Positions 9,835 to 62,738 of a stretch of DNA of 64,000 nt are shown here, piece by piece; positions within the stretch are counted from its first letter, which is position 1; each line of letters begins with the position of its first letter. Below the pieces are notes generated by a model. That model was not told where the DNA came from, did not search any database, and was given only the letters and a program-made list of their open reading frames with translations. Source of the DNA: an uncultured Thermoplasmata archaeon (GTDB taxonomy: Archaea; Thermoplasmatota; Thermoplasmata; Lutacidiplasmatales; UBA184); contig CAWJFK010000023.1 in the NCBI GenBank assembly GCA_963842165.1, positions 110,817 to 174,816 of the forward strand. The letters are read 5' to 3'. A program made the translations under genes and the position numbers.

Positions 9835-10494
9835 CTACGTCCGGCGGGGGCCGGCGGGGGGTGGGGCCACGACCCAATTGTCTGCGGTCGTCGATCGTGA
9901 AGGCTCGCGTGCGCGGGGCGGCTCGGACGTTCCCGCCGGGTGGGGGGTAGGGTGGCGCAGGTCCCGCGCGATCGATTCGCCCAGTGCCGTCAGGCGGTAG
10001 ACCTTCCGACGACGGTCCACTCCCGAGATGTGACGGCGGTCCACGGTGAGGACCTCCGCGGCCTCGAGCCGCTGGAGGACCCGGACGAGGCTCCCTTGAC
10101 GGACCGACAACGCCGCGGCCATCCCTTCTTGCGTGAACCCGAGACGGGCGACCTCGTCCGCCCCGAGTCGGCCGAGAAGAGACAGGTGGAGGATAACTCG
10201 GCGGGCCAATCCCAGTCCCTCTCGCGCGGGAGGGGCCGGGGTTCCCGGCGCTTCCGTCGGGCCCCCCGCCGGCATCGAGGCTGCAGGGGAGGGAGCACGG
10301 ACCGAGAGGGAAGGTGGCACCTTCGCAGGGGAGGGGGGAGCGGGGCCGCCCGACGAATCCGCCACCCGAGGGCTGGGTTCGGTCTCGGGTGCGGAGACCC
10401 GCCACTGCGTCCAGAGATAATGGCCCAGCCATCCAGCGGCGACCGCTCCGACCGCTACGGCGACCAGCTCGAGGAGGTCCGCGGCCATCCGCAC
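9835..10494 (-). CDS. Membrane-anchored winged-helix (MarR/PadR-like) DNA-binding protein, copy 1
   Basis: N-terminal hydrophobic helix, Pro-rich linker, TQEGMAAALSVRQGSLVRVLQRLE helix-turn-helix, RRKVYRLTALG wing. Confidence 0.8.
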   Translation of the reverse strand: MRMAADLLELVAVAVGAVAAGWLGHYLWTQWRVSAPETEPSPRVADSSGGPAPPSPAKVPPSLSVRAPSPAASMPAGGPTEAPGTPAPPAREGLGLARRVILHLSLLGRLGADEVARLGFTQEGMAAALSVRQGSLVRVLQRLEAAEVLTVDRRHISGVDRRRKVYRLTALGESIARDLRHPTPHPAGTSEPPRAREPSRSTTADNWVVAPPPAGPRRT

Positions 10495-10596
10495 CTACCG
10501 TCCCCGAAGGCGACCCGGCGGAAGAGCAGTCCGCCTCCGGGGAGTGGTCGGGAGCGCCGGCGCGTTAGGACCTCGGGACATGGAGAGGGCCCGGGC

Positions 10597-13500
10597 CTAC
10601 CGGGTCCGGCCCCGGTCCGACTCGCGGCCCTCCCGCTGGAGCTCCCGGACCCACTCCTCGCCCTCCTTCCTCTTCTGCTCGAACCGATAGCGGGTGTACC
10701 CCCACACTCCGGCCAGGGAGGCCAGGACCGCGGTGATCAGGGAGACCGCGACGACCAGCGGGACGGTCCACGTCGCGGCGATCGTGCCTTCGGGGGCCGG
10801 ACTGGTGTAGCTCACCGAGACCGGATTCGGGGCCGCCCCTTGGACGGTCAGGGTCGAAGCCGAGAGGGAGACCCGGTATCCTGCCGGACCGGTCGCTGTC
10901 AGGGAGTACGACCCGTCGGGCAGCCGGAGGGTGATCTGGGATCCGGTCGATTGACCGGACGTCACGGCCTGGGTGGCCTGGTTGACCGCCGTGACCGTCC
11001 AGAAGGACCCGGTGGGCAACCCGGACTCGAGGAAGAACGCGGGGAAGGTGCTGTTCGAAAAGGCCACCGCGACCACGACGAGCGCCCCGTCGACGATGAC
11101 CTGCGGCGAGTAGTTCGCCGTGTAGCCGACCACCCCGCTCACGTTGAGGACGTAGGTCCCGTTCGGGACTCCAAAGGAGAGCGTGGTCCCCGCGGAGGAG
11201 AGGGTCGTCCCGCCGAGGGTTGCCGACCAGTCCGTGCCGTTCGCCAGGCCCGATTCTACGACGTCCACCCCGTAGACCAACTCGCCGGTCGCGTAGGAGA
11301 TCTGGACGATCACGGCCGTGCCGGAAAGATTCACCCACCCGAGGCTCGGCGACGGAAGGTAAGAAGAGACGCTTCCCACGAAGAACTGGTACGTCCCGTT
11401 CACCGCCGCGAACGAGATCGTCGGGCCGGTCGAGCTGAGGTTCGACCCGCCCAGGTCGACCTGCCACGCGGTGCCGGAGGGGAGTCCGGTCTCCTGGAAC
11501 GCGACCGTGTAGGAGGGACCCGAGGAGGCGTAGGAGAGATTCACGGCGGGGACCGGACCTCCCGCCACGATCACCGTGCCGTTGTTGGGGGTCGGGAAGT
11601 ACGTCGTCAAGCCGTACGAGGCGAACGCCTCGTACCAGTACGTTCCGTTCGGATCGTCGATCACGATCGTGTTCGAGTTCGTTCCCGCCCACTGGCCGGA
11701 GAGGTTCACGGACCAGCTCCACCCCGAGGGCAGACCCGTTTCTTGGAACGTCACTGGGTAGGTGACGATTCGTACGAACGTCACGATCACCGTCAGGTTG
11801 GCCCCGGCCACCACGAACAGGCCGGAGACGTTGACGGCGGCGTACGTTCCGTTCCCGTTGATCTGGAAGAAGTACGTCCCGTTGGGCTCACCGAAACTCA
11901 GGGTAGAGACCGGGGCCTGGGCGTATTGCCAGGAGCCGTTGACCCCGACCGACCAATTGGTCCCGCTGGGCAGGTCGTTCCCGTCGTTGAACGTCACGAC
12001 ATACCAGGCGGGGCCGGAGAAATTCAGGTAGACCTGGGTGGACTGGCCGCTGACCAGTACCCAACCTTCCGAGGACGGAAGGCTGTACCCGGCGCGTCCG
12101 CCGGTAACCACGTAGAAGTAGCTCCCGTTGGGCTCGTCGAATTGGAGCCAGCCACCGGTGGTGGTCCGGACGGCCCCCCCGACAAAGACCGACCACGAGG
12201 TACCCAGTGGCAGGCCGTTCTCCGTGAACTCGAGGCCGTACAGCGGGGGGTTCGCGGTATACGTGATGTACACGGTCGTCCCGTTCGGGCCCACGGTGAC
12301 ATTGCCCGCGGCAGGGGACGGGAAGTACGTCCCGCTCGAGGAAACGCTGTACTGGTACGGGACGGTGGCGTTCGGCTGCACCATGAACTCGAGCGGATTC
12401 GAATCGCCGCTCTGGGCGAGCTGGTCCGCACCGATCGTCACGCCCCAGTAGGTTCCGTTCGGGAGCCCGGTTTCCTGGAATACGAGCGGCACCCCCGGCG
12501 GAGGACTGGTCCCGAGGAACTGTGCGCACTCGAACGTCGTGTTGGCCGTGTTGGTGACGCAGACATCCCCGGTATCGGGGTCGTACACGACCCCCGACGG
12601 GTCGAAGGTGAGGACCGCGTAGACCGACTCGTTGGCCGTCGAAATCACGACGAGCGGGTTGAGGCCGCCGCCGACCCACATCATCCCGTCCGCGGGGTCG
12701 TAGGCGATCCCCTGGAGGTCCAGCGGAAAACTCGAGTTGGTGGACACCGGAATAGTAAGGACACTGAGGAAGGAGCTGCCCGAAATGACGCTGACGTTGT
12801 CGGACCCCTGGTCCGTGACGTAAACGTTGTCGGTCGCGGTGTCGACCGCCACGCCATAGGGTCCCTGGTCAACCGTGACGTTGGCGAGGCGCACTCCGGT
12901 GGATCCCGAGATGACGGTCACGTTGTTGGAACCGTAGTTCGCGACGAAGACATCCCCCGTGGAAGGGTCGGCGGCGATTCCGATGGGATCCGACCCGACC
13001 GGCACGCTCGCGAGGAGGGTGAGAGTCGAGCCGGAGATGATCGAGACGTTCGCGCTCCCGTTGTTGGCGACGTAGATGTCCCCGTTCACGGGGTCGAACG
13101 CGACGCCCGTGGGGCTCGTTCCGACCAAGATCGTCGCAATCGGAGCGGTGTCGTTGCCGGAGAGGGCGCTGACATTGTCCGAGCCGGAATTGGCGACAAA
13201 GATGTCACCGGTGAGATTGTCGTACGCGACACCGAAGGGATTCGAACCCACCGGGATGGTCTCGCTCACAATAGGATTCCACGTGAAATTCCCCGGCACG
13301 ATGTCGACACTCGAAGGGGGAACCGCGACGTAGAACGATTGGTCTGCGTTGTCGTAGGCCAACCACGCCGGGGGCCCGGGAAGATACCCGGGGGGCGTGG
13401 GATTCAGTGCCACGGTAGCGAGGCGGTGGTGCGGGAGGGTGGCGAGGGGATGGGCCACCGCCGGAGCCGCCACGCCCGGAGGAGCGGCCACGTCGGACAC

Positions 13501-13683
13501 GGGGTGAGCGGCGGCGAGAGTCGCCCCGCTCCAAGATCCGACGGAGGCCAGGAGGACGATCAGGGCCACCCCCAGGACCCAGCCGGCAACGACGGTCGGG
13601 GGAGCCGGTGCATTCAGGACAGGATGGGCAGCCCGGGGCGAGGGCATCGGGACGGTTCCAATCCTCGGCCGATCCGCGCTCAT
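10597..13683 (-). CDS. Cell-surface protein: YVTN/YncE beta-propeller, thermopsin-type Ig-like repeats, C-terminal TM
   Basis: Signal-like hydrophobic segment; repeats VGSNPFGVAYD...IFVANSGSDNVS; repeats VTFQETGLPSGTxWSV...PNGTY; TM plus basic tail. Confidence 0.85.
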   Translation of the reverse strand: MSADRPRIGTVPMPSPRAAHPVLNAPAPPTVVAGWVLGVALIVLLASVGSWSGATLAAAHPVSDVAAPPGVAAPAVAHPLATLPHHRLATVALNPTPPGYLPGPPAWLAYDNADQSFYVAVPPSSVDIVPGNFTWNPIVSETIPVGSNPFGVAYDNLTGDIFVANSGSDNVSALSGNDTAPIATILVGTSPTGVAFDPVNGDIYVANNGSANVSIISGSTLTLLASVPVGSDPIGIAADPSTGDVFVANYGSNNVTVISGSTGVRLANVTVDQGPYGVAVDTATDNVYVTDQGSDNVSVISGSSFLSVLTIPVSTNSSFPLDLQGIAYDPADGMMWVGGGLNPLVVISTANESVYAVLTFDPSGVVYDPDTGDVCVTNTANTTFECAQFLGTSPPPGVPLVFQETGLPNGTYWGVTIGADQLAQSGDSNPLEFMVQPNATVPYQYSVSSSGTYFPSPAAGNVTVGPNGTTVYITYTANPPLYGLEFTENGLPLGTSWSVFVGGAVRTTTGGWLQFDEPNGSYFYVVTGGRAGYSLPSSEGWVLVSGQSTQVYLNFSGPAWYVVTFNDGNDLPSGTNWSVGVNGSWQYAQAPVSTLSFGEPNGTYFFQINGNGTYAAVNVSGLFVVAGANLTVIVTFVRIVTYPVTFQETGLPSGWSWSVNLSGQWAGTNSNTIVIDDPNGTYWYEAFASYGLTTYFPTPNNGTVIVAGGPVPAVNLSYASSGPSYTVAFQETGLPSGTAWQVDLGGSNLSSTGPTISFAAVNGTYQFFVGSVSSYLPSPSLGWVNLSGTAVIVQISYATGELVYGVDVVESGLANGTDWSATLGGTTLSSAGTTLSFGVPNGTYVLNVSGVVGYTANYSPQVIVDGALVVVAVAFSNSTFPAFFLESGLPTGSFWTVTAVNQATQAVTSGQSTGSQITLRLPDGSYSLTATGPAGYRVSLSASTLTVQGAAPNPVSVSYTSPAPEGTIAATWTVPLVVAVSLITAVLASLAGVWGYTRYRFEQKRKEGEEWVRELQREGRESDRGRTR

Positions 13684-13708
13684 AATGATCTGTAGGCGGT
13701 CCCGGGCT

Positions 13709-13746
13709 TATGAACCCAGGGCGATTTTACGTCAGAAATATTCCGG
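13709..13746 (-). promoter_or_regulatory. Putative promoter/operator motif shared with 54442-54480
   Basis: Minus strand CCGGAATATTTCTGACGTAAAATCGCCCTGGGTTCATA, ending 25 nt before the ATG. Confidence 0.55.
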
Positions 13747-13753
13747 TTCGGTC

Positions 13754-14296
13754 TTACGTACGCTGGTCCCGGGGGGGAGGCAAGTGCAGTCGGTCGTCCG
13801 TTTCGGCCTGCGCGTAACCGGACTGGAAGAAGAGCAGGGGCGCGCCGGCCCGCCCGAGCTCCTGGTGGACGACCTCCCCCACAATGAGCACGTGGTCGTA
13901 GCGGGGCGTCCAAGCGACGACCCGGCATTCGGCCGCGCCGAGCGTTCCGTCCAGCAGGGCCGCCCCCGTGGACCCGCGGTGCACGGGGAGGTCGCGGAAC
14001 TTTTCCTCGGGAGGTGCCGCGCGGGAGAACCGCTCGCTCAGCGCCCGCTGGTCGGCGGCCAGGAAGTTGACCGCAAAGGCCCCGGAACGCTGGACGACGG
14101 GCGTGGTGTCGGCATCGAGGGTGAGGCTGATGAGCAGGGACGGGGGAGCGACCGAGACGGAGAGGAGGGCGTTCACGGTCAGCCCGGCGTCGTGGCCCTC
14201 TTCATGGGCGGTGACGACCGCCACCCCGGTCGCCCATCGGGCCATGAGGTCCCGAAAGGTGCGTCCGTCGGTCGAGGCCGCGGGAGGACCGCTCAT
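13754..14296 (-). CDS. Flavin reductase family protein
   Basis: FRDLMARWATGVAVVT, SVSVAPPSLLI, FAVNFL, DHVLIVGEV; apparent fusion to the permease in the ORF track is an indel effect. Confidence 0.9.
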   Translation of the reverse strand: MSGPPAASTDGRTFRDLMARWATGVAVVTAHEEGHDAGLTVNALLSVSVAPPSLLISLTLDADTTPVVQRSGAFAVNFLAADQRALSERFSRAAPPEEKFRDLPVHRGSTGAALLDGTLGAAECRVVAWTPRYDHVLIVGEVVHQELGRAGAPLLFFQSGYAQAETDDRLHLPPPRDQRT

Positions 14297-15413
14297 TCGA
14301 CGTCCCGCCATTGGAACAGTCGAACGGCGAGCGCGAAGATGAGTACGGCCACTACCGTGACGACCGCGACGTCGAACAGGGCCCGCGACGGGTTGGAGAA
14401 GAGCATCACTTGGTCCATCCCATCGATCACATAGTACAGCGGTAGCACTTTCGCCACCGGCTGCAGCCAGCTCGGGAACATCGAGACGGAGAAGAACGTT
14501 CCCGAGAGGAACATCATCGGGAAGGTGATGATGTTCCCGATGAGGGCGGCGCTCTCGGGCGTGCGCGCGACCGTGCCGGCGAGCATCCCGAGCGAAACGA
14601 ACAGGAACGGTCCCAGGACCAGGAACGCGAAGAGGCCGGCCGTGACGTGCACGTGCGCCGAGAAGAGACCCACCCCGGCGCCGATCATGATCCCGGCGGT
14701 GACGAACGTCAGGAGGACGTACCAGATGATCCGGGAGAGGAGCCATTCGGATTTCGTGAGGGGCGTGAGAGAGAGGGCGCGGAAGATCCCCTCTTTGCGG
14801 TACGAGGAAGCGATGTCGACCATGGAGAACATCGGGCTCGTCAGGATCGAGAACCCGACGAGGCCGGGGATCAGGTAGTCGATGTAGGTGTAGACCTGGC
14901 TGCCGATGTTCTTCGGCGGGGGCACCTGGATGACCGGCGCGCAGCTCCCCGGACGCGCAGACGGCGTGGAGGTTGAAGTAGTTCGCCACACCCATAACGG
15001 CGCCCTCCGCTTGGCCGGTGGACGCGGCGCTCTCTGGGTTCGTGAAGAGGGTCACGTCCACGCTCGTTCGATTCGAGTAGTTCGACTGGAACCCCGCCGG
15101 GATGAGGAGGCCGACCGAGTACCCGTTGTCGCCGAGATCGGCCGAGAACGAGGCGGTGGGATAGTTGACGATCGTGACCTGGACGAGGCTCGTGTTGTTC
15201 AGCGCGGCGAGGAACGCAACGCTCGTCGGGGAGTTGTGGTCGAGGTTCTCGACCGCGATCGAGACCGCGCCCCCTCCGCCACCGGAGAAGATCGCCCCGA
15301 ACAGCGCGATGAGGATGATCGGGAAGATCAGCGAGAAGAACAGGGCCACCGGGTTCCGGAGATACGACCGGGACGACGACCTTCAGGTCAGCCAGGATGC
15401 GTTCGGGCTTCAC
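14293..15413 (-). CDS. ABC-2 type exporter permease; indels
   Basis: RNPVALFFSLIFPIILIALFG, YIDYLIPGLVG, PMMFLSGTFF. Confidence 0.88.
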
Positions 15414-43692: not shown

Positions 43693-45295
43693 GTGGCGAA
43701 CCGTCGAAGCGAATCTATGACTCCTCCCGCCTCGCGAGCAGAGGTAGAGTCTGACCCCGTGGCCAGCGCGATTGGCCGCGCGGGAATGACGGGAATCACA
43801 CTGAAGCAACTCGCCACTGTGACCAGCTTGGCCCCCGATAGGGTCGCCCATCGTGTAGAACGATTGGCGGCCGCTAAGACGATTGCCCGCCACGGACGGG
43901 GACTGTGGGTGTTGAGTCGATTTGCTGTAGGAAGTCCGGCGCCATCCTCGTTTCGTGGCCCCGACTGGTTCTCGGGCGCATTCGAAAGGCAGTTCACCAT
44001 CAAGATTGGACGGCAGGCAGGGGAGATTCAGTTCAATCCTAATGAGAAGCGGCCGGTCCATCGCTGGTGGCCATACGTTCAGGGGTTCTCGGCCGGATTC
44101 GTGGAGCTTACTTGCCGACGGTTTGGGGCGGCTCGTGGTTCTGTCGTGCTTGACCCATTTTGTGGTAGTGGAACCGTGCCGGTTACCGCCCGCTCACTCG
44201 GTGCCCTGGGTATCGGCGTTGACATGATGCCGGTAGCCGCGTTCGTTTCCGCGGCCAAGGCGGAATGGGAGACCGATCCCGAGGCGTTCTGGAAGGCTGC
44301 GATAAGTGTCATCGGAAACCGTGGTGACCCGACCATCGCCAAGCCATTCCTGAAGGAGACGGAACGGCAGTTTGAGAAGGATGTTCTGCGCTCGCTCCTG
44401 AAACTCAAAGAGAGTGTGTGGTCAGTGAAGGAAGGCCCGGTCCAGACATTGCTTAAGCTCGTGTTCGCGAGCATTCTGATTGACTGTAGCAATCTGAAGC
44501 GAGCGCCATGTCTAGGCTACACGCGTAAGCTCGGCCTGACGGCGGACACTCCGTATGACTTGTTCCGAGCTTCGGCCGGACGAATCAGAGATGATCTCCG
44601 TCTTCTCCAGAGGGAGCCCGAGAGATGGGGACCGAAGCCTCAGATTAGTTTGGGTAGTTCAGCTGAGGTCGAGCTCGGAACTGAGACGATAGATCTCGCA
44701 ATCACTAGCCCGCCGTACGTGAACGGGATGGATTACGTAATGAACTACAAGATCGACCTTGCATGGCTAGACTACATCCACTCGTACGAGGAATTGGCCC
44801 AATTGCGCGCCTCGATGGTGGCGTGCGACAACATCCCGAGAAGCACCGCGGCGAACCACAGGCCTTCCGGATTCGTTCGTTCGGATGAATGGTTGAGTTC
44901 TATCGCTCAAAGCGTATCGAAGAACATCGGTGCGAAGGGGGCGTATCGAGCGCGACGACATGGCAGCAATCGTGACCAAGTACTTTGACGACTTGGTCCC
45001 CGTCGTTCAGAATGTCTACAGAGCCCTCAAACCGGGCGGCCGTTTTGTGGTTGTGAACGGAGACTCACTGATCGCTGGAACCTACGTGCCCGGCGACATG
45101 ATTTTTGCCCGTCTTGCCGCTCAAGCCGGCTTCATTGTCGAGGCCTGCGACGTTGCTCGTGAGCGTCGTTCGGGACAGCGGCGCGGATTCATACTCCGGG
45201 AATCTATCCTTACTCTCCGGAAGCCCGGTCCGTACTCTCCCCCGCGTTCTGTCCGCCCGGTTCACGAACTGGAGGACTTTGACCCACCGAACTGA
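43693..45295 (+). CDS. Amino-type DNA methyltransferase (probably N4-cytosine) with N-terminal wHTH; indel near 44950
   Basis: VHRWWPYVQGFS, VLDPFCGSGT (motif I), ITSPPY (motif IV), LKPGGRFVVVNGDS, LRESIL. Confidence 0.88.
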
Positions 45296-46231
45296 GCAAC
45301 CGCCATCGGGCTCAAACCCGCCGTCCAGAGCGTTTCGTCCTCAAGACGGAGGAAGATGTCGACTGTCTGGTTCTGTAGTTTGGAACCGAGCCAGGTCTTG
45401 ACCTCCGAATTCGGGATCAGATAACAACGGCCACGGTTGTAGCATAGGTGTCCTCGTCCTTCGAGAACAGCCTTGCCAAAGGGTTCCCCCACGCGTATTG
45501 TGACTTGCAGCCCTTGTGACTTCTCGCTGCCCTTCCGGAAGAAGACAGGCGCTCCACCTAGCCTTCCCTCGTATCCCTTGATCGCCGATATGGCGCGCGT
45601 GGGAAACCGGCTCTCCACGTCTTGGGGCCGGACGATTGTCGAATCGACGACCGGCTCTTGGCCTCGAATCAATCAGCTCAAGTTCGTAGAGCACGTGACC
45701 CAGCTCGCTTCTGAGCTCCTCGAACAGGGTCTGCTGGGTTACCGAAAGCTCCGGCATCTTCTTTTGCTGATTGACGGCCGAATGGGCCTCTCCATCTAGA
45801 AACAGCTTGATCGCGGCCTGTTCCAGGGCCTCCCGGAGCGTCGAGTCGTTGAATCTTGAGTGCACAGCAGCGCGGCCATCATTGATTATGAGCGCCCGGT
45901 CGAAGCGACCGAGTTCCTTGGGTGCATGGTCGAGGTGTTGGCCCAACCGAGCTCGCAGATTGGAACTCTCGCCGATATAGACCCTATCTGTTTGTTCGTC
46001 CATCAGAACATAGAGGCCAGGGTGAGCGAGCCCCCTTCCCAGCTCCTCTTCAATAACCGACTTTAGCGGGTCGGCCGGTATGAGCCACACAACAAGCTGG
46101 CCGAGCTTGGTTCGACCCCTTACCACTCCGCGACCATCCACCGGATCAATGTCCCAGCCATATCGGTCTCTTGCGGACACCGCAAGGAACGAGTTATCCC
46201 CCCCAGATAAGCGGGCTGTCGCAAGGGTCAA
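45262..46231 (-). CDS. GIY-YIG endonuclease with unrecognised C-terminal domain; indel near 45670
   Basis: PGLYVL...VYIGESSNLRARLGQH...ALEQ...AVN. Confidence 0.8.
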
Positions 46232-46304
46232 CGCGAGGCCTGACGAGAATCGATCCCTGGGGGCGTGATCAAAGTCCTGAGTTCGCGAGCGCGTGACCGA
46301 ATCT

Positions 46305-46795
46305 TCAACAGCGTCTAGGCCGAATCGCGGCTAGCGGGGGGCCAGCGAAGTCTTCCAATCGCCTTCAACTTGTTGACGCCGAGGGCGCCTCGCTCATTTC
46401 TGGCCCTAGAACCCGTGCGCGGAAAGAGCCTCGAGGACTGCGACTCGGTCCGCCTCGTACATCGCAACAGCCTCGAGGTTTGCGTCCAGGAGCACCATTA
46501 GAACGGCATCCCAATCCTTACGAACATCGATTCGACCTAGTCGCTGACCCGGCTTGCTCCGAGGCTGGAGGCAGCGGCCTTTGATTTGCAGTTTGCGGGT
46601 GACCCCATTCGTGCGCTCCAAAGCATCGTACCCTTCATGCCTCGCGGGTGTCAGCTCGAGGCCGAGGAGTCTGGCAGCTTCATATTCGGCAACTTCTCCG
46701 GTGACCCCCAGCGGTTTTCCAGTCAGCGCCCGGTACTCTTGAGCCAGCTTCTTTACCCGTTGAAGGACCTCCAAGACGCGGGGACTCGTTTCCAT
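46305..46795 (-). CDS. DUF6998-like small PD-(D/E)xK nuclease-fold protein; indel near 46415
   Basis: GKPLGVTGEVAE...GYDAL...LQIKGR; continues in another frame as GSRARNERGALGVNKLKAIG. Confidence 0.7.
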
Positions 46796-46918
46796 TTTCT
46801 AAGGCTCCGAGTCGAACGACCGATAAGTGAGTTACTCCGGGTGCCCAGCCTTCCTCGGAACAAAGTCCCGCGACCTGGGACCGACCTTTATCTAAGGGCG
46901 GAACCCACGCGAGAGTCC

Positions 46919-47882
46919 TCACGGCGTTCGGGGTTTGGAGCCCTCGACCGACGAGCGCAACTGAACGAGCCTTGTCGCGACCGTTGCGAACAAGTCGAGC
47001 GCAAGTTGTAGGTCCTCCTTCGACGGATCGTGTCCGGTGTGGACCGAGCGGCTCAATAGACGGTGGAGTCGCCGGGCGATCCCTCTTTCTTCGTCGGACT
47101 GCATCAATCGGTCAACGCCGGCTTTCCAATCCTTCTCGCCACTCAGTTCGGTCACCAAAACCTCGAAGGCGATGCGGAGGGAGGCTGCGCCTTGCCGGTA
47201 CGCATCGGACCCCCCATCCTTCAGGCGGGTGATCGCCCCGTCAATCGACTCGGTAGCTTTCGGAATAGTTCGAATTGAGCTCAGCCTGGCTGCGTAGGTA
47301 CTCAGCGTCTTGCGGAGCTTGGAGGCGCTGAAGAAGGTCGGCGAGTTCCGGGGCACTACGCGCAGTCCGGTCTCTCGCTCGCCCGAACTTATGTCGCTCG
47401 TAGAGTCGGGGCACCTCCTGGTTAGGGACGAGCGGCATGTACGAGACCTCGTCGAGCGCGCGAATCAGGGCGCGGATTCGAGTGCCAGGGGCGCCACGAT
47501 CCAGCGCTGACCCGAAGCGACGGAGCAGTTTCGCGGAATTCGGGGTTGCCCCCAGCGAACCGTCCGCTACGGAATGCGAGCTCGCCATGGCCCTCGCTTC
47601 ACCTACGAGGGCGTCGATTCGCCGATTGGCCTCATCCCTTGCCGCTATCTTCGCGGAATGTCCCCACGCGGCCAGGACCTTGCGGCTCGTTCCTTGCCAC
47701 CCCCACGGCACGAGCTCACGGATACCGGCGTTAAGCAGAAGCTCGCCACCGGGGTTGGACCGTCCGGTCGCCGCGGCTGCATACGTACCGAGCAGCTGGG
47801 CTGCCTGCGCTCGAATGGCGGCAATCTGAGCCAAAGCGCCGGATCCCCCCACGGTTGGGTTACCGTACCCCCCGAGCGACAC
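46919..47882 (-). CDS. Hypothetical helical protein, C-terminus HEPN/Abi_C-like; indel near 47340
   Basis: AYRQGAASLRIAFEVLV...LHRLLSRSVHTG...EDLQLALDL. Confidence 0.5.
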
Positions 47883-48047
47883 GTACTCTCTACCCGATAA
47901 GTTCAGGTCATCTCGAGCTTGGGCAGGCCCCGGCTGTCAAGGATCCCGGACAACCCGACCTCGCCCGAGCCCCGGCCCCGGAAGCCTGGGTCGTGACTCG
48001 GGTCGCCCCGTGGGCAACGGGATGGACTTCGTCCTCGACCGATTCGT

Positions 48048-50156
48048 ATGGCCGACACCGGGGGAGGTAGCAAGAACTATCGCAAGCGTCAGGTTCCGGA
48101 TCTCGTGCGCCTGACGCAGATTTCGGTCCAGAACTTCCTCACCTTCGGTGAGAGAGCCGGCGTCCTCAAACCGCGGGCGGACAGGAACGTCCTACTCGGC
48201 CCGAACGGTGCTGGAAAAACGAGCCTATTCGAGGCAATTGACTTCGTGGGGTCCGCGTTCGGATACCCTGGCCCCCCGATCGAGCCGTATCGCCATCGCG
48301 GGAACGATTTGGCCGAGCCGAACATCGAAGTAAGGGTAAAACTCCTCGGCCCCGAGATCAAGGCGCTCACCGACTGGATGGTCCTCGCTGGGCTGTCCGA
48401 GCAGCTCAACATCACCCAAGGTACGAACGAACTCGGGGAGAACCCCGACCTCGGCGCGGCCCGGAGTCTCTCGAGAGAGCTGATCGGCTTCACGAGGCCG
48501 GCGTTCGATGCGCTCTTCTCGCGGGAGATTGGCTTCCGGGTCCAAGGAACTGGGAATCCCTCGCGTCCCCTCCGGTCGTGGATCGAGTTGCGCGCGGGAC
48601 CGGACTCCCTGTACATTTCCGAGAACGCCGGGCTGACGCTAGGCCGCGACTGGAATGGGGGTGGGTTCGTCTTCGATCTCCGGAAGGAGACCCTGAAAAC
48701 GCTCCTCGAGATCGCCCCAAACGCGCTGGCCCTCGATCCGGCGAAGAGGTCGGCGACGAGGGGCCAAGTCGCTCGGGCTGGTCGACGGTTCAACCTCAGG
48801 TGGTTGGTCGAGGGACTGCGGGTCCCAAGCCAAGGAACCCGGTTCGTCCAGGTCCACTCCTTCAACCTGAGAAGTTACGAAAGCCAAGAACGCGACACCC
48901 CCTCTCTTGCAAACGACCTTCTCCGCTTCCTGAAATCGCGTGGCTTCAGCTCCGAGACCATCGGGCTGCGCGAGCTCTTTCGCCTTGTTCTCGCGACCTC
49001 GGTCGTCCGCCTGTCGAATTTCCGGTCTCCTCCGAACTATTATCCGGAAGAAACGTTCGATCAGATCCCGACCCACTTTGAGCAATTGAACGGATGGGAA
49101 CTTCCCGCCGCGCTCTGGAGGCTCAAGGATAGTCCGGAACGGTCCGACCGCCAGCGGTTCCAACGCGTACAGGCCGCGTTCAAGGAGGTCTCGGGTGGGA
49201 TCGAGGTAGACGTCACCCTGGAGTCGGAACAGGTTACTCCCACCGTTCCCCCGACTAACCCTGCAACGGAGCACCCTGCACCCGCGCCCAACACCTCCAT
49301 GAACGCCCCTCCGCCCGCGTACCGGCAGTTCCCACGGATCCGCTTCTTTGACGAGCCGTACGAGTTCGGTTCGTTCAATGCCTCGGCCGGTCTGTACGAG
49401 TCGCTCCTGCTCGTTTTCACGGCCTTCGAGAGCGAGGGCGCAGTCGTGGTATTGGACGAGCCGGCTACAAATCTCCATCCCGCAAAGCAGCGTGAGTTCG
49501 CGCGCCTTCTCACGACGCGACTCGCGACTTCGGGTGTCCAACTGTTCGTCATCACCCACGCCCCCTCGTTCGTCGACCGCCAGAACCTTCGAGGGCTGGT
49601 CAGGGTCGACCGCCCGTCGGGCGCCACTCGACTTCTCCCGATAGACAAGAAGGCGGGGTTCGCGTACGACGAGCTGGCAAGTCAGGCCCAGATCCTCCCA
49701 AACCTGATCCCGATGCTATTCGCCCGGAAGGTGATACTATTCGAGGGAGACCAGGAGGCCCGTTCGCTACCAGTGTGGTTCCGGAAGATCGAACCCGGGA
49801 TAGAGCCTGGAGACCTCGGGATCGATACGGGTGACGGAGGCGGCGACCCGAAGTTGGTAATGCACGCAAAGGCGCTCAAAAAACTCGGGATTCCCTTCGC
49901 TATTGTCGGCGACCGGAAAAACAAGAAGGCGCTGAGGGCCTTCACTCCGAATGTGTTCACCGTCCCGTACTCGGACTTCGGCCGGATGGTCCGAAAGGAG
50001 TGCGAGCCGGAACTCAACCGAGTCTACACGCGCAAACCATGGCCCGACAAGATCGGAGCCGACGCCTGTCGGCGAGTCGCTGAGCTGGGCAATCCTCCAC
50101 CCTCCGTGATCGCTCTCTGGGATCGAATCAAGTCATTCATCGACGAGCCCCTCTAA
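48048..50156 (+). CDS. OLD-family-like ABC ATPase plus TOPRIM domain
   Basis: VQNFLTF, GPNGAGKT, VLDEPATNLHP, ITHAP, LFARKVILFEG, IVGD. Confidence 0.85.
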   Translation: MADTGGGSKNYRKRQVPDLVRLTQISVQNFLTFGERAGVLKPRADRNVLLGPNGAGKTSLFEAIDFVGSAFGYPGPPIEPYRHRGNDLAEPNIEVRVKLLGPEIKALTDWMVLAGLSEQLNITQGTNELGENPDLGAARSLSRELIGFTRPAFDALFSREIGFRVQGTGNPSRPLRSWIELRAGPDSLYISENAGLTLGRDWNGGGFVFDLRKETLKTLLEIAPNALALDPAKRSATRGQVARAGRRFNLRWLVEGLRVPSQGTRFVQVHSFNLRSYESQERDTPSLANDLLRFLKSRGFSSETIGLRELFRLVLATSVVRLSNFRSPPNYYPEETFDQIPTHFEQLNGWELPAALWRLKDSPERSDRQRFQRVQAAFKEVSGGIEVDVTLESEQVTPTVPPTNPATEHPAPAPNTSMNAPPPAYRQFPRIRFFDEPYEFGSFNASAGLYESLLLVFTAFESEGAVVVLDEPATNLHPAKQREFARLLTTRLATSGVQLFVITHAPSFVDRQNLRGLVRVDRPSGATRLLPIDKKAGFAYDELASQAQILPNLIPMLFARKVILFEGDQEARSLPVWFRKIEPGIEPGDLGIDTGDGGGDPKLVMHAKALKKLGIPFAIVGDRKNKKALRAFTPNVFTVPYSDFGRMVRKECEPELNRVYTRKPWPDKIGADACRRVAELGNPPPSVIALWDRIKSFIDEPL

Positions 50157-50308
50157 CGGGCCGGAAACCACCGCGGTTCAACACTAACTCGGACCTGGAG
50201 CTGACCCGGGGGTCAATTCTTCGTCAGTAGCTCCCGTGCGGCGTGGGCGGCAAGTGCTGGACGCTATCCCCGTCTTTTCGCCGTCGATAAGGATGGACGG
50301 ACAAGTAG

Positions 50309-52121
50309 TTGGCCGGACTCATTGAGATACCTGGCGACCAAAATCGGGCTGACTTATCTGGAAGGACGATTATCGGGCCACTGGCCCAGCGCGAGATGTC
50401 ACCCACGGGATTGACCACATTTCCAGTTGACTTCGGACTGGCACCCGACTACGTCGAGTCGGCGAGCAGGCTACCGGTCTCCTTCCCGACCGCACTCTGC
50501 GAACTTATCGACAACTCGATAGCGTCGACACCTTCGGGGGCTCCCGGGTTCGGAGTCGACCTCTACATCCATGAGACCCCGGCGGACTCGCTGCGCATCA
50601 TGCTGTCGGATGCCGGCCCGGGCATGCCTCCCGGCTATGTCGAGCGCGGCCTCTTCTTGCTTGGGGGGAAGCCTGCCCTACCGCCCGGGCCGTTTGCGTC
50701 TCTGAACGAGCACGGCCTAGGCCTCAAGCAGGCACTCCCCAGGCTAGTTCGTGACTCAGGTTACGTGTTCGAGTTGCGTTCTGGTTTCCGAGGTACTCCG
50801 GGTTCACCGATTGAGTACAGCCACATCCAAGGCGTGCTCACAACCGATCCCCTCCGCAAGATGAGCGGGCACCGGTGTGACCTACTCGCGGCTAAGCGGC
50901 TCCATGCGGGAGAAGCTCACTTCAATGCGGGGGTAAAGCCACGAGGTTGGAATCCGAATACCGGAACGCGACTCATCTTCGACTGCTCCAAGGGGTGGGC
51001 ATACGAGGGTTGGCAGTCCCCGTTCGGGATAGATCCCTCCTCAGTTGATTTCAAACGCTTCGCACAGCTGCTCAACGAGCATCTTGGGGTCACGTACCGG
51101 CATTTCCTTTCCCCCACGGGCAGGTTTGCCCTAGGTACTCCGGAACTCGATTAAGTGCCGATACTGGGCCGCCACGGGCCGTGCTCTTGGCCAATTCGAG
51201 ATCAAGCCAGTCGAAGTCCCCTATGAACCTGGCAAGTCGAAGTCAAGCACCTTCGCAGTGTCTAACGGAGCCGTCTCCATCGACGTCTCGTACTCGAGGG
51301 GAATATCGGACGCTGCGGTGTCCGCTACCAGGCAGGCATTCCACAAGATCAATCCCAGGGCCCAAGGCTATGACTTGGTCGTCAACGGCAAGGTACTCCA
51401 GTCCGCCGTTCTTGAGGAGGTCTGGGGGCGCAACAAACATCCCGGCCTCAACACTCTCACGGGCGAGATCATCTTTGAGGTGACCTCGGGAATCCTTCAC
51501 ACTACATCCACGAAGGATGGTCTTGACTGGAACCAGGACATCCTCGACGATGTTAGGACGGAGATTCGCAAGCTCGACTGGAGCGCTGAACATGTAGTTG
51601 ACATGTTCAGGCCGCCCCCACCAGCACCGCCGAAGTCTCGATTTCGGTGGGCGGGGCACGAAACGACCCTACACAAGCTCTTGGAGAGGGCGTGTCTTGC
51701 CGCGTATCCGACTTCCACCACGCGCCGTCCTCACTCCGCGTGGCCGATGGCGTCGACGGGCATCGATCCCAGAACTGCTGCGGATCTGACTTTTGACGAT
51801 CATCGCGGGTTCATCGTAATGGAGGTGAAGAAGGGTTACGTGGAGCCGCTTGACCTGTATCAGCTTCGACTCTATCGGGACGGTTTCTGCTTTTCGCGAG
51901 CCCCAAAACACCCGAGTTTCGGTTTGCTCATTGGCGACAGCGAACCGCCCGGGGTGAAGTGGTTGAGAGCTTACCTCAACCGACAGAAGGACCCCTGTGG
52001 AACCCTCTATCAGCTTCAGTTCCGACCGCTTAGTTTTTTCGGGCTTCCGCCACGTTATCCGGGGGGGTCCGCAAACGTTTCCGCGATGAGGAGTCTAATC
52101 GAGAAATTGTTGGGCCCATAG
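50309..52121 (+). CDS. GHKL (MORC-like) ATPase fused to a C-terminal restriction-endonuclease-fold domain; indel near 51150
   Basis: ALCELIDNS, DAGPGM, LNEHGLGLKQA, TGT; then ADL...VMEVKK...LYQLRLY. Confidence 0.78.
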
Positions 52122-52671
52122 CCAGTCCTTACGACGTGACCTCCGGGTCCGTTTACCGTCAGAGGGGGAACCGTGGACGCGCGTCGAAAGCCCTGATTTC
52201 GATCCTGAATGCGGACCAGTCTCCTGTCGAACGAGTTGGCACTGAGCGCGACCGATCCTGGCGCGGCTCGTTGCTTTTCTGACACCGTCGTGGTGCGTTC
52301 GGACTCGCTCACATCTCTTCGGACGGAACAGACAACGTAGCGGCAGCACCGTTCCACGCATTCTCTCGCCAATCAGGCGCGGGGGCCATCCGCCCCAGAC
52401 CTGGCTGGGCGGTGGGGCATTCGCGCTGGGGAAAACTAAGGGTGCCTTGGCGGGACCCTTGAAGACTGGACCGAATCGTGAAATGGTTGAGCCCTTCTAG
52501 GTGCGCTGACAAAGCTGAGAAGTGTTCCACGTATGGGATTGGACTACTAGGTTGGCACGGAGGAGTAATTCACAACGCTCGTGAGGTTCCACATCGACGT
52601 GGAAGACAGTGGGGCCGCCGTCAGAGCCTATACGGAGGCTCTACGAACCAAGGTTGTAGGGGTCAACTGGG

Positions 52672-53004
52672 CTAGACTATCCTGACCGGTTGTTCGGTCT
52701 TGGGTTTGAGGACTTTGATATCGTAGTCAACAAGGACTTGGTTTGCCGCCCACCTAATGGCTTCCAAGAACGCAATCATCCCGGCCGTGGACTCAGGGAC
52801 GATTGAGATGTTGTATACGTCGGTGGAAGTGTCAACGTCCATGGTAAAGCGAATCCCTTTGGGAACCTGGAACTGCTGTTGCTTTACTACGACGGTCTTT
52901 GTCTTGGGCGGCTCAACGGTAGTTCTGCGGTTAGGTTGCTTCTCCTCAGTCTCATTCCCCCGCGCTTGAACCCCCACCCGAGTACTCTCCTGCATCCCGT
53001 TCAT
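52672..53004 (-). CDS. Hypothetical protein
   Basis: ATG overlaps the reconstructed glycosyltransferase stop (ATGA); protein-like composition. Confidence 0.55.
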   Translation of the reverse strand: MNGMQESTRVGVQARGNETEEKQPNRRTTVEPPKTKTVVVKQQQFQVPKGIRFTMDVDTSTDVYNISIVPESTAGMIAFLEAIRWAANQVLVDYDIKVLKPKTEQPVRIV

Positions 53005-54154
53005 CGAATCATCTCCGCGCATAATACCTCGAGCTCACTCGCAAGGTGCTCCCACTTGAGTTTCGGGGGCACCCCCCCACTCCCTTTGGGCGACCCCAGA
53101 GACTTACCCAAGCAATCAGCTGCGTCATCGACGTTGGCGAACCACTCATAGCCTAGTTGATGCGGGTATCCTGCCGAGATCGGACCAAGAAGGACGAGTG
53201 AAATTCATCCCAATGGCTTAGAACCTCTCGATGGACTGGGAAGTCTGTCATTATGGTTGGAGTGCCGCACGACGCGGCTTCCGCCATCGGCGAGTTGAAA
53301 CCCTCCGCGGTGGTGAGGCTAACCACAGCAGTCGCGGAACGGTACAGTCCTGCCATATCGCCTTCCGTCATGCCGATTGTGTGGCCCGAGAATCCCGCCC
53401 CCGACCGAAGGGCGATTCGTCCCTTTCCCCATAGACCGGCCGCCTTGACTATCTCCTCAAGTCGAAAAAAGCCTTCAGATGGTGAGTGCAAATAGAGAAT
53501 GGCATCGGAGTCGTACCTTTCGAGGAACGACTTGAAGGCCAGGATAAGCAACGGCTGCATCTTTCGACCGGTCGACCAATTGGTCGCGACTTGGACAAAC
53601 AGGGGAACATCTGAGGGAAGACCGAACCTATCGAGGGTTTCCGGTTCAGCTTTCCCGGCGTGATAGATGTCGGGGTTTACGCCTGGGTAAAGCCGCCTCA
53701 TGCGCGTCCGCGGCGCGCCACATCTAGTGAGTACTTCCAGTCCCCAGTCAGTTGTCACAGTCGTAAGGTCGGCTTCGGAGCTTACGGTGTCGACGAAAAA
53801 GTCCGGATAGTAATCGTGATCCACCGGCGTGTAAGCCATGAATTTTCCTCCGAACCTATGCGCGATAGGCATCAGGTGGTAGGGCTTTGCCGCTGACTCT
53901 TCCGATAACACCCAGTTGTCACGGATGTGAACGGTTACATCGGGTCTGAAGGTGGAGAACGCCGACTCTCGCGCATAGGCGTCATTGAAAGCGATAACAT
54001 GAACCCCCTCGACTTCCCGAGGGGGGCCGACGTGCTGAAGCCCAAAGTTCGCAACGACGTGCCCCCTGCGAACAAGCCAACTCCCGAGCTCGAGTGTTTG
54101 CTTACCGTAATCGGTGGGGAATGTGCAGAGGTCCCCGGCGAGAGCGATTCTCAT
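53001..54154 (-). CDS. GT-B (family 4-like) glycosyltransferase; indel near 53155
   Basis: PGVNPDIY, GRKMQP, EGFNSPMAEAASCGTP; continues LGYEWFANVDD...KWEHLASELE. Confidence 0.88.
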
Positions 54155-54441
54155 TCGTTTTGCGAGTGGACTCGCCTACATGAATGCTTCCGAAATATCC
54201 TGGAGTCTCAGAGGGGGCCGCCGAGAGGGCGCGTGTCGATTCCATCTGCCAAGCCCCAGCCCTCGTCCGCTCCGCCTGAGCCTGCAGGGCTGCTAGTTTC
54301 CCTGTGCCCAGACCTTGTCCTTGATTGCCGTTCCTTCCGTGAGAATGATTCACGATCCCCTAGGGCCCCCAAAGGTCAAGGGAAAGCTGGCCCTCAAAGG
54401 TTGTGATTTTCACTTGGCCCGACGACACTCATATGTGGAAA

Positions 54442-54480
54442 TCGGACATATCTGAGTCGTATCTTCGCCGAGGGCTTATG
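54442..54480 (+). promoter_or_regulatory. Putative promoter/operator motif shared with 13709-13746
   Basis: TCGGACATATCTGAGTCGTATCTTCGCCGAGGGCTTATG, ending 25 nt before the GTG start. Confidence 0.55.
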
Positions 54481-54505
54481 TTGCGGGAGACCCAATACAA
54501 CGAAC

Positions 54506-56649
54506 GTGCGCGCTTCAGTTACCGCGGTAATGGCCGCCCTGATCGTTCTCTTGGGAGCCTCAACTCTGGCCCCGATTTGGGAGGAACAGTTAGGCGATGG
54601 GAACGCTCCTGTGGGCCACCAGTACGGCTCGGCCTCATCACTGCCGATGCAGGGTAGGTCATCTAGCGTCCGAGATGGTGCTAAGACAGGCGTAATGGAC
54701 CCGAAGTCGGCAGGAAGTCAGCCGACGAAGTGTCTGCTTGGTGGCAGCCACGATTCTGGGTGCGGCGAATTGTTGAGCAGCAGGAGCTCGACATCTGCGT
54801 CCGGCCCGGTTTGGACAAATCTCAGCACCCCGGGCGGGCCACCCCCCCTCTATGATCTCTCGATGGGATATGATGCAGGCGACGATCAGACCGTCGTTTT
54901 TGGAGGATTCAACCCTGCGGCGACTGCGGTCAGCTATACTTGGACTTTCACCAATGGGACGTGGACGAATCTAAGCCCCCAGCTCACTCAGTTCCCTTCC
55001 GCTCGGGGTGGCATGTTAATGACAGACGACCCAACCGATGGGTACCTCCTCGCATTTGGGGGTAATGGGATGGCTTGTTCTCCCTCGGAATATTATGGTT
55101 GCGCAGACACATGGACCTTCGAAGGCGACTCTTGGAGCTTGACTAATGCAAGTGCACCGATTCCAGCGGCAGGAAGAACTGGATTTTCGATGGCGTTCGA
55201 CTCTTCGTCGTCTTACGTCCTGCTCACTGATGGGTGGGCTACTTGGAAGTGGTCAGGAGCGAATTGGACGCCATTTTGCGCCAGCCCCTCTAATTGTACT
55301 TTGTTCATACCTGGTCCGGACATGACTGGGTCCCTAAGCGACGACCCGGCCCTCGACGGCCTACTGTGGTATGGCGCTGGATTCACCTGGGTTTTTGCGT
55401 CGGGAAACTGGACAAACGTCTCGGCGACCGCGGGACAAGCACCCTCTGGCGCCAACGGACAGCTTGTCTATCCCCCCGCCTCGGGGGTCCCACTTCTCGT
55501 GGTGACGGGGGGCTATAGCCAAAACGTGACGCTAGACCAATTCGCTAACGACAGCTGGACAGTTGTCTCAAGCGGGTTTTCGCCTCCCGCCCGTTCCGAG
55601 GCAGGTATTTCGTACGCTGGTTCGGCAGCTGATATCCTGATGTTCGGCGGCTGGAACCTCTTCGGGCCCACACGAATCTTGAACGAGACTTGGGCATGGG
55701 GGTCGAGCCCGCCAATTAGCGGGCTCAACATCTTCGTTCAGCCGACGGTCCCTGAGCCAGCGCAAGTGGCGACTTTCAACGAATCCTTCGTCGGCGGTGT
55801 TGCCCCTTTCGGATACTCTTGGGGCTTCGGAGATGGAAACACCAGTTTCGTCCCAACTCCTATTCACAGTTTCGACGCAATCGGGCACTACTCAGTCCAG
55901 CTATGGGTCAACGACAGTGGCGGGCACCACGCATTCGCCCAACTGACCGTCAAAGTTTACGTTCCGCTTTCGATCCGAGTACTTCCGGGTGTCCCCCGCC
56001 ATTCCTGCGCTGGGTCAGCCGGTGAATTTCTCGGTGCTGGCCACTGGTGGGACGCAGCCGTACCTTTACTCGTGGTCATTCGGGGACGGAGGGACGGGGG
56101 GAGACCTTCCTAACATTACCCACCTCTACACGACAAACGGCCCATTTTACGCCCAGGTTACTGTGACTGACGGTCTTGGAGCCACGGTCAAATCAGGGCA
56201 GAACCTGTCCATCCGCCTCCAGGCGATTGCTGGGATCGAGCCTTCGAATTCTAGCTCGCCTCTTACGGTGGAATTCATCGGGCAAGCCCAGGGTGGCGTT
56301 CCGCCATATACATTCGACTGGTCATTCGGAGATCATTCCCCAAACTCGACCTAGCCAGAATCCGACCCACTCATACTCCTTCGCAGGGGAATATGTCGTG
56401 CGGCTCTCCATCACCGATGGAGCGGGGAACCGATCCACTAGTGAACTTTCTCTTCAAGTGGGGGCTGAGTCGACTAGTCCAGTCGGGCCGTCGGGAAGCA
56501 CGTGGTGGGGCTGGCCCCTTGCCCTAGGGCTGACGGCCGCTGTGGGGGTGGGTGTTGCAGGTGCATGGGTGATTACGTTCAGGAGACGACGATCGCTGCG
56601 GAGTGAGGTTAAACGCTGGGTGGACGAGCTCTTGAACGAGGAGCCTTAA
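54506..56649 (+). CDS. Cell-surface protein: Kelch-like propeller, three PKD domains, C-terminal TM; indels near 55980 and 56350
   Basis: Signal peptide; VVFGG...TWTF...WT repeats; GGxxPYxYSWxFGDG repeats; TM plus RRRR tail. Confidence 0.85.
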
Positions 56650-56766
56650 GGCAATTCTCCCTCAGGAATCTGATTCCGTTGCACGCAGTTTGGCCGAAAG
56701 CTCAAAGCGAGATGCTGACTTACCATGCGGCAGTCGGTTTGAATCTCGGGATAAGTCGGTGCGAGT

Positions 56767-57282
56767 GTGATCTGGGGATATCTGGGAGTCGGACTCGCGG
56801 TAGGCGGAGCCGCCGGCTGGGCCCTCAGGTCGATTCTGTTTCGACCTTCTCGCTCCAGCGACAGAGTTGGCGAAAACACAAGAACTCCACTAATCCCCGC
56901 CCCTCCAGAACAGACTGAATCAGTCGCTCATTCCAGCCCTAGGGCAACTAATCTTGGGAAGGTAGTTTCACCCGGAGCCGCAACAGTCGCCCGAGTGGTT
57001 TTGCATCTCTACTCACTTGGAAGGCTCGGACCGGACGAGGTCGCTAGAGTTGGGTTCACTCAAGGAGGAATGGCAGAAGCCCTGCAGATTAAGCAAGGAA
57101 CATTGGCCCGGATCTTGACACGGCTTGTGGCAGCGGACGTGGTCGAGTGCCGGACACAGCATGTCTCGGGTCATGCCCGCCGATTGAAAGTCTACAGGTT
57201 GACAGCTGCGGGAGAAGCCTTGGCACGAGATTTTCGGAGACACCCGAGAAGCCAGTACTTGGCCATCCCTCGCCTGAACTAG
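56767..57282 (+). CDS. Membrane-anchored winged-helix protein, copy 2
   Basis: N-terminal TM; 52 of 82 residues identical (ungapped, hand count) to 9835-10494. Confidence 0.82.
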   Translation: MIWGYLGVGLAVGGAAGWALRSILFRPSRSSDRVGENTRTPLIPAPPEQTESVAHSSPRATNLGKVVSPGAATVARVVLHLYSLGRLGPDEVARVGFTQGGMAEALQIKQGTLARILTRLVAADVVECRTQHVSGHARRLKVYRLTAAGEALARDFRRHPRSQYLAIPRLN

Positions 57283-57349
57283 TCGCCTGATTTCTCGGGT
57301 TGCCGGTGGACGCCGGCGTTGAAGAGGGATACACCGCGGACGACTCGGT

Positions 57350-58649: not shown

Positions 58650-58664
58650 GCCGCGGCTACCTTC

Positions 58665-62725: not shown

Positions 62726-62738
62726 AGCCGGTCACTTC

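Follow-up and report, generated by a model that had tools for sequence, protein, structure and literature searches.

In proteins of the ToxR type, a cytoplasmic winged-helix domain of the OmpR kind stands at the N-terminus, followed by a transmembrane helix, and a periplasmic sensor forms the C-terminal part. The RsgI/SigI systems of Clostridium thermocellum consist of several paralogous pairs, in which a single-pass protein with a differing extracellular binding module is encoded beside its own transcription factor; this factor is of the sigma-70 type and is held by an N-terminal cytoplasmic anti-sigma domain. In the accessible part of PMC10269533, ToxR/ToxS, TcpP/TcpH and CadC/LysP appear as DNA-binding domains tethered by one transmembrane (TM) helix, with an adjacent membrane partner that is thought to set their activity, and among the characterised membrane-bound regulators tabulated there the only one from archaea is ArnR/ArnR1. 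The latter, a membrane-bound one-component regulator of surface-structure genes in Sulfolobus acidocaldarius, has a helix-turn-helix at the N terminus, HAMP and sensor domains and two C-terminal TM helices, and neither a partner gene nor an ectodomain, according to the available portion of PMC6396743. Here we describe a two-gene module present at two loci, A and B, of a 64,000-nucleotide stretch of DNA (the window) from an uncultured archaeon of the Thermoplasmata (assembly GCA_963842165.1, contig CAWJFK010000023.1, positions 110,817 to 174,816). A surface protein whose C-terminal end is formed by a TM helix plus a short tail (the partner) is followed on the same strand by a small protein with a domain of the winged helix-turn-helix (wHTH) type (the regulator). 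The module is a real, lineage-specific and undescribed variant of the transmembrane transcription regulator (TTR) with an accessory partner, and the two-gene unit probably puts genes under the control of what happens at the cell surface.

What is new is the split form, the conserved tail of the partner with its two-way linkage to the wHTH genes, the series of three regulator forms and the promoter boxes specific to module subtypes. With a probability of roughly one half, each locus is an operon for a cognate pair of receptor and transcription factor that is controlled by contact and probably autoregulated. The genes and domains, with their strands, are the following.

10597-13683 (-): open reading frame (ORF) of partner A, a surface glycoprotein of 1028 amino acids (aa), from the ORF list, domain searches and the count of glycosylation sequons.
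10696-10764 (-): TM helix in the C-terminal part of partner A, at about residues 974-996.
10600-10695 (-): cytoplasmic tail of partner A, residues 997-1028, a basic cluster and then KEGEEWVRELQ.
10495-10596 (-): spacer of 102 nt between partner A and regulator A, read directly from the sequence.
9835-10494 (-): ORF of regulator A, 219 aa, with TM helix (2-33), linker (34-88), wHTH (89-180) and a C-terminal extension.
9955-10230 (-): wHTH domain of regulator A, aa 89-180, from the AlphaFold2 model, Foldseek and Pfam.
54506-56649 (+): partner B, a Kelch propeller and PKD repeats followed by a TM helix and a tail, in three frames in this assembly.
56581-56646 (+): tail of partner B, RRRRSLRSEVKRWVDELLNEEP.
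56767-57282 (+): ORF of regulator B, 171 aa, with N-terminal TM helix, linker and wHTH.

Compared with the ToxR type, the order of the parts is reversed, an outside portion or stub being followed by the TM helix and a C-terminal wHTH. The large sensor is on the partner instead, the tail is cytoplasmic and conserved, there are many paralogous pairs per genome and the host is an archaeon. With this opposite order and a PadR/MarR-like wHTH, the regulators fall outside the ToxR-like group (ToxR, TcpP, CadC), as defined partly from general knowledge and partly from the accessible part of PMC10269533. The likeness to RsgI/SigI is functional only: there too, paralogous pairs join an ectodomain-bearing single-pass protein to an adjacent transcription factor, whereas the factor here is a wHTH protein, a C-terminal tail 22-40 residues long is the candidate for docking, and there is no homology. 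Searches of Pfam and NCBIfam found no sigma or anti-sigma family match for either protein, which places the module outside RsgI-SigI; by analogy, it may nevertheless work most like anti-sigma pairs of this kind. Regulator A also differs in architecture from ArnR/ArnR1 as these are described in the available portion of PMC6396743. By kind, the module belongs with the TTRs with accessory partners found in the accessible part of PMC10269533, and it is a member of none of the systems compared.

A sequence-only reading of this DNA had proposed the two-gene arrangement at both loci, with 52 of 82 residues identical, ungapped, between the two wHTH domains. The ORFs bear it out, the gaps between surface gene and regulator being 102 nt at locus A and 117 nt at locus B, and the identity was recovered exactly as the best ungapped 82-residue stretch (200 shuffles: mean 16, maximum 23; BLASTP of the two regulators, E 2e-33). 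The ectodomains of A and B are indeed unrelated by sequence (best BLASTP E 0.13), and when the ectodomain types across loci were grouped by BLAST clusters they varied between close regulator/tail relatives. Recurrence turned out to be wider than first noted. The window's own genome (G000; 2.15 Mb in 30 contigs, 69% complete) contains seven wHTH paralogues, and ahead of every one of them, in the same orientation, lies a propeller/PKD surface gene ending in a TM helix and a tail. Collecting homologues and scoring the gene upstream, as had been suggested, was carried out on 40 wHTH genes, these seven and 33 from 11 other genomes (the unpublished G019 was skipped); a partner was defined as an upstream ORF of at least 150 codons that has a C-terminal TM helix with a short tail and whose end lies no farther than 1.1 kb from the wHTH core. 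The linkage is consistent: a same-strand, tail-bearing partner lies upstream of 36 of the 40 genes in the 12 genomes (35 by this definition and one, L050, by a second script). When a third conserved gene was sought in the neighbourhoods, only an ABC ATPase, at 5 loci, and a glyoxalase-like gene, at 4, recurred, and synteny or membership of common families explains both.

A conserved tail on the surface protein was likewise confirmed. In 31 aligned tails the TM helix is followed by R-x-R-R-x-R and then E-G-E-x-L-V-x-E-L, often with a final P-P; the cytoplasmic tails, 22-40 residues long, can be summarised as a basic cluster plus EGE-x-[LW]-[VI]-x-[ED]-[LM], and the 32-residue tail of partner A, TRYRFEQKRKEGEEWVRELQREGRESDRGRTR, belongs to this motif in the alignment. 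The linkage also holds in the reverse direction. A profile of the 31 tails was searched in five genomes, and of the 26 matches extending over the tail part (E<3e-5) every one has a wHTH match no more than about 1.3 kb away, the weaker matches covering mainly or only the TM part. A regular-expression scan of the window's own genome found the TM-preceded motif solely beside wHTH genes; many other surface proteins of this genome have a TM helix and a Pro-rich tail without the motif. Moreover, tail and wHTH distances correlate (Mantel r 0.53 for 34 pairs, none of 2000 permutations being as high), which, as far as sequence distances go, shows at least that partner-regulator pairs are inherited as units. 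Chance or artefact as the source of the recurrence was rejected on the grounds of the 36/40 linkage, the 26/26 reverse matches and the shuffles.

The AlphaFold2 model of regulator A (38 homologues) comprises a helix (residues 2-33), a disordered Pro-rich linker (34-88) and a wHTH (89-180) with a predicted local distance difference test score (pLDDT) above 95. The top match of this wHTH in a Foldseek search of the PDB is the PadR protein Rv3488 (5zi8; E 8e-4, TM-score 0.53 on the target), so that by fold it resembles solved PadR proteins; MarR/MepR come next, and MarR-family chains score nearly equal. The N- and C-terminal dimerisation helices of MarR are absent from the model, which contains H1-H4 and the wing only. 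The wHTH is thus PadR/MarR-like in fold and, by the Pfam and NCBIfam cut-offs, not a curated member of either family. In the 38 aligned homologues the N-terminal helix is conserved, with two glycines four apart and then a W, 90% or more of the rows having G17 and G21. Directly after the helix come basic residues, the recognition helix is conserved and the wing is both basic and conserved; the linkers vary and contain no conserved site. The modelled wHTH thus has the features of a DNA binder, and binding is predicted. In the sense of PMC10269533, a DNA-binding domain and at least one TM region predicted in one protein define a TTR, and regulator A has both, whereas the soluble members of its family lack the TM region.

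Three regulator forms were distinguished. A script sorted 197 database homologues into 95 with a stub and a TM helix, the form of both window regulators, 46 soluble proteins, 49 extended before the helix and 7 others. Two PKD domains stand ahead of the helix in all 10 fused homologues sampled, and three database proteins of the Thermoplasmata lineage (P0058-P0060) have a PKD/Kelch ectodomain fused N-terminal to the TM-wHTH part (Kelch, or Kelch plus PKD, in P0059 and P0060). The profile matches of the fused proteins run from the helix onward, that is, over the same TM-linker-wHTH module as in the window regulators; in the window, by contrast, the ectodomain is on a separate protein with its own TM helix and tail, and the regulator keeps a stub only. 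In their genome loci the fused regulators too sit after a tail-bearing partner, and at the soluble-type loci the partner ORF ends only 77-218 nt ahead of the wHTH core. Because soluble and ectodomain-fused regulators occur with the same kind of partner, the membrane tether of the regulator is not constant; what is constant is the partner's TM helix and tail and the wHTH. The earlier view of a variable ectodomain joined to a conserved membrane and DNA-binding output therefore stands for these parts and had to be given up for the regulator's N-terminal tether.

The regulator helix starts at residues 1-8, with a mean of 0.18 lysines plus arginines before it and 3.23 in the 15 residues after it, and its C-terminal flank is the more positive one in 79 of 93 proteins. 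Regulator A has no N-glycosylation sequon, as against 36 in partner A. Because positive charges follow the helix, fused and soluble homologues exist and regulator A is without sequons, the wHTH of the stub-TM regulators is placed in the cytoplasm. A cleaved signal peptide, which would have put the wHTH outside the cell and had been named as fatal to the proposal, was ruled out by the lack of a basic n-region, the ectodomain-fused and soluble homologues and the absence of sequons.

The distribution of the regulator family was followed with a 38-row profile (E<=1e-18) in 301 genomes of the class. Matches occur in 17 of them, in two families of one order: apart from G000, in 15 of 37 genomes of the window's own family (genus g1 12/28, genus g16 3/3) and in the single genome (1/1) of the second family; the 262 genomes of the other 31 families searched gave none at this threshold. 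Occurrence is patchy within the window's genus and reaches nine wHTH matches per genome, eight of them beside a tail match (this tally includes the unpublished G019). A search of 1.84 billion representatives returned 228 proteins at E<=1e-30, a number that rises to 575 at E<=1e-10, and the named library matches are all 'Thermoplasmata archaeon', auto-labelled PadR or MarR. The module had not been recognised as a described system at the outset, and full-text literature searches found no description of it, the supplementary tables of the TTR census (PMC10269533) being a place where members may be listed; nor is it described in the accessible part of PMC4158269.

Weaker class-wide matches elsewhere are of the same wHTH kind, placed N-terminally on STAND/AAA ATPases. 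Those outside the order (L069-L076) were rejected as instances of this module; in L069-L073 and L075, from other Thermoplasmata families, the wHTH is N-terminal on such an ATPase, and in P0057 it is at the C-terminus of a STAND/AAA ATPase with TPR repeats. Since it is fused to STAND/AAA ATPases at one end or the other, this wHTH type would serve as an output or input module in other architectures.

Partner A consists, in order, of an N-terminal hydrophobic signal/anchor, a YVTN/NHL propeller (YVTN repeats, TIGR02276, E 1.4e-18; NHL, E 1.9e-10), seven repeats of about 80 aa with the common motif E-[TS]-G-L-P-x-G-x-x-W, the TM helix and the tail. Of the labels first given to the ectodomains, the YVTN propeller of A and the Kelch and PKD domains of B were retained, and 'thermopsin-type' was dropped for the repeats of A, which reach no Pfam family at cut-off, thermopsin being absent from the families listed (E up to 5). 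The 36 N-X-S/T sequons all lie at residues 132-877 and are far above what shuffles give (mean 11, maximum 19), which fits an extracellular glycoprotein. Contigs from two RNA libraries, 90-100% alike, lie over the partner A gene at 10615-11243, 12494-13025 and 13407-13594, one piece (10663-10793) with zero differences; no contig from the four runs covers the regulator gene or the spacer. They are a weak hint that the partner A gene or a close relative is transcribed, as RNA libraries can hold DNA. The C-terminal extension of regulator A (9838-9954) contains a D-N-W-V-V motif, and a short [DE]-W-[VI]-[VA] end motif is conserved in many A-type and related soluble-type regulators. These ends resemble the E-W-V of the partners' tails (EEWVREL, QRWVEEL) and could be a self-mimic of the partner tail.

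Upstream of both partner genes are TATA-like elements accompanied by further AT-rich boxes.

13735-13744 (-): AT-rich box 0 of the locus A promoter, GGAATATTTC, a near-palindrome, candidate operator.
13722-13730 (-): box 1 of the locus A promoter, a candidate operator half-site with the sequence GTAAAATCG, at a distance of 8 nt upstream of the TATA-like box.
13707-13714 (-): TATA-like box TTCATAAG, 24-31 nt before the ATG of partner A.
54448-54465 (+): direct repeat ATATCT / GTATCT of locus B, with an 11-nt period, candidate operator.
54475-54482 (+): CTTATGTT, the TATA-like box of locus B, 24-31 nt ahead of the start codon (GTG) of partner B.

Sixteen module promoters were compared, namely those among the 40 loci where a signal peptide let the partner's start codon be placed. 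A TATA-like box lies about 24-38 nt before this codon, and since archaeal TATA boxes centre near -26/-27, the module transcripts are suggested to be leaderless or to have a short leader. In the AT profile of the 16 promoters the TATA peak, at -30..-26, is accompanied by extra peaks at -45..-41 (0.82) and -60..-51 (0.51-0.60), whereas control promoters with a TATA-like box (32 and 70) have the TATA peak only, with 0.30-0.39 AT at the same positions. AT-rich direct repeats (at least 5/6 matches, 10-13 nt apart) are found in 8/16 modules, against 0/32 and 1/70 controls. The sequence of the boxes tracks the module subtype: [AG]TATT[TC]C ... GTAAA[AT] in the A type (locus A, the C20 module of the same genome, L042 and L038), [AG]TATCT ... 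GTAT[CT]T in the B type (locus B and L044) and [AC]CTAA ... GACTAAAGTCACC in the C25 type (C25 of the same genome, L039 and L041). The G007 orthologue of locus A (L038) has a perfect palindrome, GGAATATTCC, at the place of box 0, which is a perfect 10-bp palindrome in L057 as well. The 9-mer GTAAAATCG has three copies in the 2.15-Mb genome, two of them at the equivalent promoter place of both A-type modules, and is present too in L042 of G015; L044, related to locus B, has GTATCT / GTATTT with the same 11-nt period. Because their sequence differs between module subtypes, the AT-rich boxes are candidate operators, a lead with some support. A genome-wide scan with the loose expression CGCCGAGG plus a TATA element matched mostly coding DNA and was uninformative. 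A further direct repeat is seen in the locus A promoter, on the minus strand, between ACGTAAGA (13752-13759) and ACGTAAAA (13724-13731), 28 nt apart; its first copy, ACGTAAGA, overlaps the stop region of the upstream ORF.

Read directly, the 102-nt spacer of locus A contains neither an AT-rich TATA-like box nor a T-run, and co-transcription of partner A and regulator A is therefore likely. More generally, the spacers of both window loci are free of TATA-like boxes and of AT-rich boxes of the promoter kind, which fits a single transcript. At the DNA level, locus A and its G007 orthologue align over the coding parts and the flanking gene only, and the spacer gives no footprint.

Since only the TM helix, the tail and the neighbouring wHTH are conserved across unrelated ectodomains, we read the two proteins as receptor and regulator. 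The partner would be a type I surface glycoprotein whose variable ectodomain of propeller and immunoglobulin-like (Ig)/PKD domains faces outward and meets something outside the cell. The window regulators would be held at the inner face of the membrane by their N-terminal TM helix and disordered linker and would bind, in the promoter of their own operon, the AT-rich boxes that lie a short way upstream of TATA. The tail would dock or restrain the cognate regulator, contact with the partner setting the regulator's activity, with a possible contribution of parallel TM helices in the tethered forms and of the membrane-proximal PKD domains in the fused forms. Encounters of the ectodomain would in this manner feed back on transcription of its own operon. 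It is from anatomy, linkage and candidate operators that we infer trans-membrane signalling, and with it the contact between tail and regulator, DNA binding, the direction of regulation and the nature of the signal. The more specific proposal that the tail is a docking peptide holding or releasing its own wHTH factor, in mutually insulated pairs with interchangeable ectodomains, is put forward tentatively, as a possibility on the weaker side of even. A complex prediction from the regulator and tail alignments scored 0.07, the mark being 0.32, a result that speaks on neither side of the question of binding.

A number of observations weigh against the receptor/regulator reading. Both regulators remain below the Pfam gathering score for PadR (PF03551: 25.7 and 26.4 bits versus 27, over profile positions 25-72 of 75), far under the cut-offs of the NCBIfam PadR models and below those for MarR (PF01047 and PF12802: at most 19 bits versus 24.6 and 27). 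The usual targets of PadR and MarR proteins, which bind as dimers, are palindromes; a palindromic box 0 is found in some of the loci only, and reading the boxes as direct repeats is our own interpretation. The promoter contrast overstates independence, the modules being related and the controls few (32 and 70) and picked by a crude selection rule. The co-divergence of tails and wHTH domains can also be explained by duplication of the pair as a unit, without contact. Four of the 40 wHTH genes (L058, L061, L063 and L067, all at fused-type loci) have no tail ORF in the scanned stretch; the L058 locus begins at the first base of its contig, and for L061, the longest, the stretch scanned was probably too short to reach the partner. 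Lastly, in P0056 (970 aa, on one 3.2-kb contig) partner, spacer and regulator form a single frame with two TM helices, which, if real, would place the wHTH outside the cell. We provisionally take it as an indel or gene-calling artefact, the alternative being a natural fusion.

The main rival is a plain local autoregulator, a wHTH that controls the neighbouring surface gene without touching its protein, the tail serving another purpose such as sorting, anchoring or turnover. Small regulators often adjoin their targets, soluble regulators exist here and the candidate operators are at the promoter of the operon itself. Such a regulator would, however, leave unaccounted for the confinement of the tail motif to partners of wHTH genes, on which the profile (26/26 in five genomes) and the regular expression agree while the other surface proteins of the genome have TM helices and Pro-rich tails without it, and a cytoplasmic autoregulator has no need of the membrane anchor or ectodomain that many of the regulators possess. 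We consider it rather unlikely, the better-placed of the alternatives all the same.

The membrane anchor can also be understood differently, if a tethered or fused regulator were cut from the membrane on a signal and the partner protected or exposed it. Regulated intramembrane proteolysis of anti-sigma factors and the protection of TcpP by TcpH provide models for such a release; the long disordered linker between helix and wHTH in the AlphaFold2 model would offer room for a cut, the fused forms look like single-pass receptors, and partner proteins of ToxR-type regulators are listed in the accessible part of PMC10269533. Against this, no protease gene recurs across the module neighbourhoods examined, the linkers are variable and without a conserved site, and the soluble forms need no release, all of which makes proteolytic release improbable. 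A role away from DNA, in which the wHTH would be a protein-binding adaptor that links surface-protein tails to some structure or machine in the cytoplasm, has a precedent in the CdvA-CdvB wH contact, where a winged helix binds a peptide, as winged helices can. Here, the conserved basic residues of wing and recognition helix, the DNA-binding regulators that are the nearest folds and the module-specific boxes at the promoters all speak for DNA as the target instead, and the odds of an adaptor appear just as poor as those of proteolytic release.

The partner B gene is broken over three frames in this assembly (54506-56113, 55989-56354 and 56176-56649). Other genes of the assembly also look frameshifted, among them an ABC-2 permease and two wHTH paralogues (G000 C22:134798-135145 and C23:194581-194865), and a true pseudogene at partner B is for this reason indistinguishable from an assembly error; frame-broken G000 genes have unbroken orthologues in G007 (L055, L066). 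Indel errors may be numerous in the assembly, and pseudogene calls from it are unsafe. The ABC-2 permease gene lies next to locus A (13754-15349 / 14293-14991, minus strand) and is readable only across frames. The last ~160 residues of ORF 13754-15349 (13754-14400, minus strand), flavin reductase-like by eye, are joined to the permease frame, and this ORF probably represents two genes, or contains a frameshift, and is not a fusion. Locus B has a GC content of 57-63%, versus about 68-72% elsewhere, and belongs to a low-GC stretch at about 44000-64000 of the window. This stretch also holds a GT1 glycosyltransferase (53153-54154), a pRiA4b ORF-3-like protein (58665-59357) and long ORFs without Pfam match that are transposase-like by eye (57350-58720 and 58074-58649), and is possibly an acquired island.

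Little is known of how archaea relay information from their surface to their genes. The module described here is compact and repeated, and its short conserved tail, its small regulator and the short DNA boxes that are its candidate operator are each accessible even if the organism is not grown. Should the pairs be specific, they would also amount to a naturally occurring set of orthogonal receptor/regulator modules whose ectodomains can be exchanged. If the tail does act as a docking peptide, archaea would possess in this module a counterpart to anti-sigma signalling, assembled from unrelated parts, and these Thermoplasmata a main route of surface-to-gene signalling.

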